Shown here in pieces: positions 63,520-63,547 of a DNA stretch of 64,000 bases. The stretch lies in assembly GCA_947627975.1 (NCBI GenBank), contig CANQYB010000001.1, positions 7,997-71,996 of the forward strand, in the 5' to 3' direction. This DNA is from an uncultured Bacilli bacterium (GTDB taxonomy: Bacteria; Bacillota_I; Bacilli_A; RF39; UBA660). The notes beneath the pieces were generated by a model. The model searched no databases and was not told the DNA's origin. It saw nothing but the letters and a program-made list of their open reading frames with translations. Numbering within the stretch: position 1 is the first letter of the stretch; every line of letters starts with the position of its first letter. Position numbers and translations under genes: made by a program.

Positions 63520-63547
63520 ATTATATAATACTACCCCCCCCAGTCAA
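63520..63547 (-). promoter_or_regulatory. near-consensus sigma-A promoter with G8 homopolymer in the 16-nt spacer
   Basis: The minus strand reads TTGACT-GGGGGGGGTAGTATTA-TATAAT, about 20 nt upstream of the ATG of 62309..63499. The plus-strand C8 run is at 63534-63541. Confidence 0.5.

Follow-up and report, generated by a model that had tools for sequence, protein, structure and literature searches.

Does a run of eight guanines inside a promoter spacer serve as a length-variable switch of the gene that follows it? This question is raised by a locus near the end of a 64,000-nucleotide (nt) stretch of contig CANQYB010000001.1 from an uncultured Bacilli bacterium; we refer to the whole stretch as the window and to its organism as lineage A. 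On the minus strand of the window a G8 tract lies within the 16-nt spacer between TTGACT and TATAAT, the hexamers of a candidate promoter that precedes a gene (the target gene) whose product is putatively secreted or exposed at the cell surface and combines a TasA-like domain with a LamG lectin domain. A preliminary description of the window, made from the sequence, had noted this arrangement and read the tract as a slipped-strand phase-variation switch. Having compared the locus with its relatives, we regard the proposal that the G8 tract is a slippage switch of this promoter, producing phase or 'volume' variation, as evenly balanced between true and false. The anatomy of the promoter and homologous G8 and G9 tracts in a sister lineage raised its plausibility, whereas length variation at one and the same locus was not seen.

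The G8 tract and the hexamers around it

Direct reading of the minus strand from 63550 to 63497 gave ttcTTGACT-GGGGGGGG-TAGTATTA-TATAAT-acacttaagaaggtaaaaaa-ATG, in which the element from TTGACT to TATAAT spans 28 base pairs (bp) and 20 nt separate the −10 hexamer from the ATG (63499) of the target gene (Table 1). The order of the elements, the perfect −10 and the distance of about 20 nt to the start codon agree with the preliminary description. The −35, which it had called perfect, matches TTGACA at only five of the six positions, and the AT content of the window, given there as 75 %, was measured as 77.3 % (22.7 % GC). Against this composition the G8 tract is an extreme outlier: as had been noted, it is the sole long G/C homopolymer, there being no other G/C run of at least six in the 64 kilobases (kb) and the next longest being four C5 runs at 3553, 7627, 11293 and 60570, and dinucleotide-preserving shuffles contained on average 0.02 runs of G8 or C8 per window. 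Its length falls within the range in which G/C tracts are prone to slippage (about 7-8 or more).

The hexamer pair agrees with the consensus at 11 of 12 positions and obtained the top score within 61900-64000 in a promoter scan; in the whole window, both strands counted and the target promoter included, only twelve sites scored at least 11. Hexamers alone prove little, because promoter-like hexamers are common in this AT-rich DNA: the scan found 21 of them where 15.8 were expected, with weaker matches no commoner than in shuffles. What supports the predicted promoter is its conservation in relatives, not the hexamers alone.

The window contains a second member of the gene family, which starts 27 nt after the stop codon of the ruvB open reading frame (ORF; 14952..15947). 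The identity of the two proteins is 72 % over the full length and rises to about 98 % within the first 230 amino acids (aa). Their DNA is 97-98 % identical from the leader to approximately residue 215 (about 62850) and then drops, with divergence in the LamG core and conservation again in the last 60 nt. As the homology begins only at 63514, just downstream of the −10 and at the predicted transcript start, this paralogue is without the promoter. Its description as a promoterless copy directly behind ruvB was therefore borne out.

Table 1. Positions, sequence contexts and spacer lengths of the target locus, its relatives in the window and the homologous promoters of lineages B and C.
Feature	Position or context	Strand	Sequence or slot content	Remarks
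−35 hexamer	63547..63542	minus	TTGACT	read from sequence; 5/6 match to TTGACA
G8 homopolymer	63541..63534	minus	GGGGGGGG	−35-proximal half of spacer; proposed slippage-prone element
Spacer remainder	63533..63526	minus	TAGTATTA	8 nt; total spacer 16 nt
−10 hexamer	63525..63520	minus	TATAAT	read from sequence and promoter scan
Shine-Dalgarno	63513..63507	minus	AAGAAGG	
Predicted short 5′ leader	63500..63513	minus		start about 63513, inferred from −10 position
Target (putatively regulated) gene, 396 aa	62309..63499	minus		signal peptide, TasA/camelysin-like N-terminal domain, variable C-terminal LamG lectin domain
Type IV pilin-like gene	63585..64000	minus		cut by window end; upstream neighbour; weak NCBIfam matches to ComGC, GspG and other pilins
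Promoterless paralogue, 389 aa	13755..14924	minus		between ruvB and spoIIGA-sigE
P0014	after rplQ terminator		GAGGAGGG (Lapin) / GAAGAGGG (ERZ)	spacer 18 nt
P0008	tandem second gene, after another family gene		GAGGAGGG (Lapin) / ATGGAGGG (ERZ)	spacer 18 nt
P0002	ABC transporter to uvrC		GGGGGGGG-A (G8A)	spacer 19 nt
P0009	spoIVA to hup		GGGGGGGG-A (G8A)	spacer 19 nt
P0010 and P0011	ezrA site, two assemblies		GGGGGGGGG (G9)	spacer 19 nt
Lineage-C copy	TTGACT-GAAAATGAAAAATCATTA-TATAAT		GAAAATGA (8-mer)	without G tract; spacer 18 nt

The promoter in related lineages

Close relatives of the target protein were few, numbering only 14 among 5.8 billion protein clusters: seven from lineage A, among them the two window copies (P0001 and P0005), six from a sister lineage, B, and P0012. 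A more distant protein, P0015, came from a third lineage, C. The sequences of the lineage-A members derive from NCBI or from NCBI plus ENA, and those of lineage B from the rabbit-gut ('Lapin') metagenome-assembled genome (MAG) CANQYE01 and the ENA assemblies ERZ27249032 and ERZ27249041 (ERZ in Table 1). For lineage A, the promoter comparison covers the two window copies of the seven; the other five members (P0003, P0004, P0006, P0007 and P0013) are on other contigs.

The arrangement TTC-TTGAC[CT]-spacer-TATAAT was found ahead of homologous genes at six chromosomal sites in lineage B and at one in lineage C. TATAAT is invariant in nine of the nine homologous promoters examined, and TTGAC[CT] with its preceding TTC is conserved in the homologous promoters of lineages B and C. 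Judged by these comparisons, the putative promoter is homologous across three lineages. At one of the lineage-B loci (L002) the rplQ terminator stands immediately before the element, which must for this reason act as an independent promoter at that locus. A consensus check by eye for the alternative sigma factors SigH, SigE, SigK, SigF/G and SigD found none that fits all lineages.

The part of the spacer outside the tract is 10 nt long in lineages B and C (AATAATTTTA- and AAATCATTA-type) versus 8 nt in the window, and the slot that corresponds to the tract lies, in lineage B, between the −35 and AATAATTTTA-TATAAT. A pure G9 or G8 tract occupies this slot directly 3′ of the −35 in four lineage-B copies, the same position as in the window. 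In about 50 kb of lineage-B DNA every G/C run of at least six (G8, G8, G9 and G9) sits in the promoter slot, and the same is true of all such runs in the approximately 114 kb of lineage A and B DNA inspected. The tract appears dispensable for promoter function, because the slot is filled by GAGGAGGG (twice), GAAGAGGG, ATGGAGGG or GAAAATGA in five copies; a G-rich protein-binding site that the promoter could not do without is unlikely, and a G-rich operator is likewise disfavoured by lineage C, where the slot holds GAAAATGA and the promoter is otherwise intact.

Spacer lengths differed between the two kinds of copies. All five non-homopolymeric copies have 18 nt, and the five pure-tract copies have 16, 19, 19, 19 and 19 nt, a pattern that would be expected if only pure tracts change length. 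The tract seems to have been kept or re-created in two diverged 5′ modules, and since both genomes are strongly AT-biased, the neutral persistence of eight consecutive G's seems improbable.

The 5′ modules have a history that differs from that of the remaining gene. In the protein alignment the first 85 residues are near-identical among the copies within a genome and 56 % identical between lineages A and B, identity over residues 86-235 is 84-91 % across the whole family, and the LamG core is hypervariable among paralogues, with one-to-one A-B pairs at 95, 92, 84, 70, 67 and 49 % identity. In DNA, the 5′ modules of A and B are about 55-70 % identical, with 5 of 11 four-fold sites identical over codons 1-60. 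On this alignment evidence, gene conversion is the process that homogenises 5′ modules within a genome.

Differences between two lineage-B strains were also seen at two loci (L004/L022 vs L002/L023). In the upstream DNA inspected, 160 nt at the first locus and about 75 nt at the second, the visible substitutions were confined to the 8-mer slot (GAGGAGGG vs GAAGAGGG and GAGGAGGG vs ATGGAGGG) or to the bases just 5′ of the −35 (TTC vs CCC), which indicates a putative local hot spot or patchy gene conversion among paralogous promoters. The leaders of lineages B (L002-L006, L011) and C (L021 424..448) form a small predicted hairpin of the CTTAC-N6-GTAAG type, which extends from the predicted 5′ end of the transcript over a Shine-Dalgarno-like AAGG (−6 to −7.8 kcal/mol, z about −2 to −2.5); the window copy is without it (−0.4 kcal/mol).

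Tract length as a possible switch

In the proposed mechanism the 28-bp element would be a sigma-A-type promoter of one member of the TasA-like plus LamG family, and replication slippage (slipped-strand mispairing) would add or remove G's in the run. The spacer would then measure 15 nt with G7, 16 nt with G8, 17 nt with G9 and 18 nt with G10, and the outcome would be heritable, reversible and stochastic steps in transcription, perhaps graded and not strictly on/off. The assembled 16-nt spacer would be sub-optimal, one slip away from the canonical 17 nt and two from the 18 nt of the relatives. The strongest expression is predicted for G9 (17 nt) or G10 (18 nt, the family default) and weak expression for G7 or shorter tracts. 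Graded 'volume' variation rather than on/off switching is suggested by the possible read-through from the neighbouring pilin gene and by the porA precedent. That this promoter drives the gene, that slippage in the tract is frequent enough to matter and that tract length affects expression are inferences. The target is of a type typical for phase variation: it belongs to a multicopy family, is secreted or exposed at the surface and has a hypervariable lectin domain. As to the scheme of 15, 16 and 17 nt put forward in the preliminary description, the present spacer is indeed 16 nt, but the family default of 18 nt in the five non-homopolymeric copies makes it less obvious which lengths would be 'on'.

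Several observations weigh against switching by slippage. The promoter at the ezrA site, the sole locus seen in two assemblies (L005 and L006), had G9 both times. G9 and G8A differ by a substitution and not by an insertion or deletion, and the whole family needs only one inferred change of tract length, from 8 to 9. The 16-nt spacer of the window is due to its shorter non-G part (8 vs 10 nt) and not to the tract. The four lineage-B tracts do not count as independent observations, because gene conversion homogenises 5′ modules; in L003 and L011, 215 upstream bases are identical. G8 is at the low end of the tract lengths that have high switching rates, and the exact length as assembled could be off by one. 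In addition, any switch may be blunted by transcripts that read through from the pilin gene: the stretch 61900-64000 yielded no terminator-like site, hence none between the pilin gene and the target promoter, and as no terminator separates the two genes an 'off' promoter need not silence the target.

Alternative explanations

A doubtful but possible alternative is that the promoter is real and fixed, the G run being a G-rich spacer variant that sets promoter strength statically or is neutral, with no switching at a biologically meaningful rate. The run would have arisen from a GAGGAGGG-type purine-rich 8-mer by two A-to-G changes and would have been spread by gene conversion. The slot does hold interrupted 8-mers that are one or two substitutions from G8, but making and keeping 8-9 pure G's would oppose the AT bias of a genome of 23-26 % GC. 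Similarly, the homogenised 5′ modules within genomes would explain how a static run spread, yet both diverged module types hold a pure tract, and the approximately 114 kb inspected contain no long G/C runs besides these tracts. The unchanged G9 of the ezrA locus and the substitution between G8A and G9 are in line with a fixed run, whereas every pure-tract copy departs from the 18 nt kept by every interrupted copy.

We consider it improbable that the hexamers are not the main promoter and that the target is instead the distal gene of a type IV pilin operon, with the tract in intercistronic messenger RNA and of little effect. The 85-nt gap between the pilin stop codon (63585) and the target gene has no terminator-like structure and promoter-like hexamers are common in the window, but the promoter module accompanies the gene to six non-pilin contexts in lineage B. 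The TasA-like Bsa proteins of Clostridium perfringens are functionally linked to a type IV pilin (PMC11580942); on the other side, the predicted transcript start is exactly the point from which target and promoterless paralogue are homologous, and read-through RNA across the tract folded no better than shuffled sequences (z = −0.04). In the same region the surroundings of the −35 (ACUUUCUUGA, 63546..63552) are complementary to the Shine-Dalgarno region (UUAAGAAGGU, 63507..63513), and one possibility is that a read-through transcript from the pilin gene could mask the Shine-Dalgarno sequence, which an internally started transcript could not.

An error of sequencing or assembly, in the tract itself or in its stated length, is a very improbable explanation: homopolymer length is error-prone, especially in nanopore data, but three further assemblies, independent of this one and with SPAdes-style contigs at about 90x among them, have homologous G8 or G9 tracts at this promoter position, so the existence of the tract is not in doubt and only an error of ±1 in its length is possible. 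A role at the RNA level was rejected: Rfam searches at gathering thresholds found no RNA family in the 64-kb window (no tRNAs, T-boxes or riboswitches), the read-through RNA folds as shuffled sequences do, and the window copy does not have the leader hairpin seen in lineages B and C. Because there is just a single G run, a G-quadruplex cannot form.

The target protein and its family

The 396-aa target protein has a hydrophobic signal sequence followed by YAYFSA. Pfam matches were obtained to PF12389 (Peptidase_M73; TasA/camelysin), at 36.9 bits (cut-off 22.5) and over residues 1-84 only, and to PF13385 (LamG/concanavalin-like), at 65.2 bits (cut-off 27.6) and over residues 255-387. A profile of the family matched the TasA structures 8AUR and 5OF1 weakly (E about 1e-3). 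In NCBIfam the scores against the BsaA family model TIGR04090 (28.8 bits, cut-off 60) and the TasA equivalog NF046066 (19.6 bits, cut-off 450) were far below the cut-offs, and by these profile scores the protein is therefore a distant relative of BsaA/TasA and not a member. The AlphaFold model is of moderate confidence (predicted local distance difference test, 69). Its N-terminal domain is all-beta, and its C-terminal half resembles LamG, pentraxin, CBM40 and CBM66 folds in Foldseek (probability 1.0, target-normalised TM-scores 0.5-0.65). According to these sequence matches and the model, the predicted product is a secreted or surface protein in which a TasA-like domain is combined with a lectin-like head. 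No signal peptidase or sipW was found among the window ORFs by Pfam scans of 55 of the 59 ORFs of at least 100 aa; such a gene could lie beyond 64000 or elsewhere in the genome. Neither of the mismatch-repair genes mutS and mutL is among the annotated window ORFs.

Comparison of the target gene with its lineage-B relative P0002 revealed an uneven distribution of similarity. The gene body from 63246 to 62347 (about 900 bp, including the LamG cassette) is 95-100 % identical in DNA to P0002 (L003 about 3250..4160), with one stretch of about 480 bp that has a single mismatch and with 45 of 46 four-fold degenerate sites identical. Identity falls to about 60-70 % in the 5′ 250 bp, and there is no relationship between the flanking genes. 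The RelA encoded in the window has no database homologue above 73 % identity apart from the window's own copy (P0020), of which an identical one lies on a second, ENA contig. That the gene body is 95-100 % identical though RelA homologues stay at or below 73 % suggests that the lectin cassette was recently transferred laterally, or recombined, between gut lineages that have diverged. At the ezrA site, L005 and L006 have identical ezrA and G9 promoter sequences and different gene bodies (P0010 vs P0011) and downstream genes (ffh vs a PNP_UDP/HD gene set), which is consistent with a chromosomal rearrangement, or with an assembly join, via the conserved 5′ module of the family.

A second homopolymer came to light at the start of the lineage-C gene (L021 449..499; ERZ28436076, 9.5x coverage), where a Shine-Dalgarno sequence and a GTG start are followed by AAAAAGAAAAAAA. 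The assembled A7 puts the signal peptide out of frame, and gene calling began at an internal ATG instead; with A8 the full MKKKKNINILLSILLIAMCATLTYAYFSA signal peptide would be regained. The same position has A6 in the window gene and A7 in lineage B. Low coverage may have produced a false A7 in L021; otherwise the run may be a second homopolymer switch, acting on translation as the 7A tract of porA does (PMC3639595).

If slippage at the G8 tract does vary the target promoter, the tract may be one switch of a larger contingency-locus system, which would be the first described from uncultured, spore-forming gut Bacilli of very low GC content, an extension that we offer tentatively. Each genome would have 6-7 genes for secreted proteins with a TasA-like stalk and a hypervariable LamG head, several of them independently switched by poly-G (and possibly by poly-A in the first codons too), so that phenotypes of the surface or of lectin binding would vary in combination. 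Within each genome, gene conversion would keep the 5′ module (promoter, signal peptide and first 85 aa) uniform, and the lectin cassettes would be exchanged laterally, this last part being based on DNA identity of 99-100 % over about 900 bp where the 5′ modules are about 60 % identical.

Other searches widened the family little. A protein-guided scan of the GTDB species representatives found a single related MAG, CANQYE01, and a DNA pattern with a tract of variable length had no match among the same representatives. A scan of JGI metagenomes with the family alignment returned distant LamG proteins only, and an exact-protein look-up of P0001, P0003, P0004 and P0013 found no record. Nine IMG/VR matches to TTCTTGACYG7 were attributed to chance, as the contigs have 42-61 % GC and no further similarity. 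The JGI contig Ga0272443_10004101 (L007), an unrelated contig of 31 % GC that was found via LamG, has five G/C runs of 6-8 (at 220, 2677, 2881, 3762 and 5685), four in an ORF of 1314 aa and one in the next-but-one gene; these may belong to a different homopolymer system located in coding regions.

Other features of the window

A gene for a class-B penicillin-binding protein appears to be split in the window (38417..39502 and 55419..55808, plus strand). The 5′ part encodes the PBP_dimer domain and the first third of the transpeptidase domain, and the 3′ part, which is followed by mraY-like and ftsW/spoVE genes, encodes the end of the transpeptidase domain and PASTA. The approximately 16 kb between them (39.5-55.4 kb) encode a Gp10-like baseplate protein, a TraG/VirD4-type coupling protein and a 2016-aa RHS-repeat protein (41972..48022), with a large serine recombinase (53261..54982) at the 3′ end. 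Judged by its gene content, the insert appears to be a skin-like element, intervening or integrated, that interrupts a spoVD/ftsI-type gene in a spore former. Despite the absence of Rfam matches, the window carries several genes for aminoacyl-tRNA synthetases (metG, serS and another class II enzyme).

Comparison with known systems

The proposed mechanism is a classical one, and it is the host lineage and the gene family that are new for it. Phase variation in gut Firmicutes is known mostly via invertible promoters. Promoter-spacer homopolymer switches are textbook examples in Neisseria, Haemophilus, Mycoplasma and Treponema and, to our knowledge, are hardly documented in spore-forming commensal Bacilli or in proteins of the TasA superfamily. 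If slippage at the G8 tract is real, an uncultured gut lineage would vary its repertoire of lectin-tipped secreted proteins through poly-G contingency promoters. These proteins would likely mediate adhesion or be targets of phages or of immunity, and the family would offer metagenomics a compact marker, readable from the sequence, of heterogeneity within populations. A stable tract, on the other hand, would leave no more than an unusual G-rich promoter spacer.

The vlp genes of Mycoplasma hyorhinis, whose host is very AT-rich and related to the Firmicutes, have poly-A in the promoter spacer, and hifA/hifB of Haemophilus influenzae have TA repeats between −35 and −10. As proposed here, a repeat in the spacer alters the distance between −35 and −10, and multigene families of surface proteins are switched independently. 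Unlike here, the repeat unit in those systems is A or TA, and the genes encode lipoproteins or fimbriae and not TasA-like proteins with LamG.

The first part of the target protein recalls the SipW-dependent biofilm-matrix fibres of TasA (Bacillus subtilis; 8AUR, 5OF1) and BsaA (C. perfringens), with which it shares the signal peptide, the YAYFSA region and a first beta-sandwich domain that matches PF12389. The pilin neighbour in the window recalls in turn the PilA3-dependent secretion that is linked to the bsa operon (PMC11580942). The target differs in its added C-terminal LamG lectin domain and in that no sipW was found among the window ORFs scanned.

Among Gram-positive bacteria, one-nucleotide insertions or deletions in an intergenic homopolymer alter the transcript levels of the surface-protein gene at Spy1336/R28-Spy1337 of Streptococcus pyogenes M28 (PMC7098570). 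That tract too is an intergenic homopolymer by a surface-protein gene, and it is polymorphic in natural populations. It is a poly-T tract, however, lies between divergent genes, exerts its effect jointly with a regulator gene and has not been described as a −35/−10 spacer.

At the level of the gene family the closest parallel is with tp0126 and the tpr paralogues of Treponema pallidum, which have promoter poly-G tracts of 7-11, with tp0126 best expressed at 17-nt spacing (PMC7864442). As in the family described here, several members of a paralogous surface-protein family have promoter poly-G, and G8 falls within 7-11; the tract of tp0126 lies between −35 and −10, and the T. pallidum tracts are common to subspecies yet missing from some copies. 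T. pallidum is a spirochaete, in which most tpr tracts lie just upstream of the transcription start and not beside the −35, and in which length variation within isolates was shown by fragment analysis, whereas our case is built on sequence comparison.

A direct precedent is porA of Neisseria meningitidis, where expression is high with 11G, 2-fold lower with 10G and 13-fold lower or off with 9G in a poly-G between −35 and −10 (PMC3639595; the tract is also discussed in PMC7864442). PorA is the outer-membrane porin of a Gram-negative pathogen and its switching was shown experimentally, while the present locus, known from its sequence, belongs to an uncultured, spore-forming, very low-GC member of the Bacilli and has a shorter tract (G8 vs 9-11 G). 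The A6-A7 runs at the Lys-rich gene starts of the family, with the apparent frameshift at A7 in the lineage-C copy, resemble the 7A tract of porA, and in both systems the poly-G lies between a −35 and a −10, predicted ones in the present case, ahead of a gene for a putative or proven surface protein, where the length of the tract sets that of the spacer (PMC3639595).

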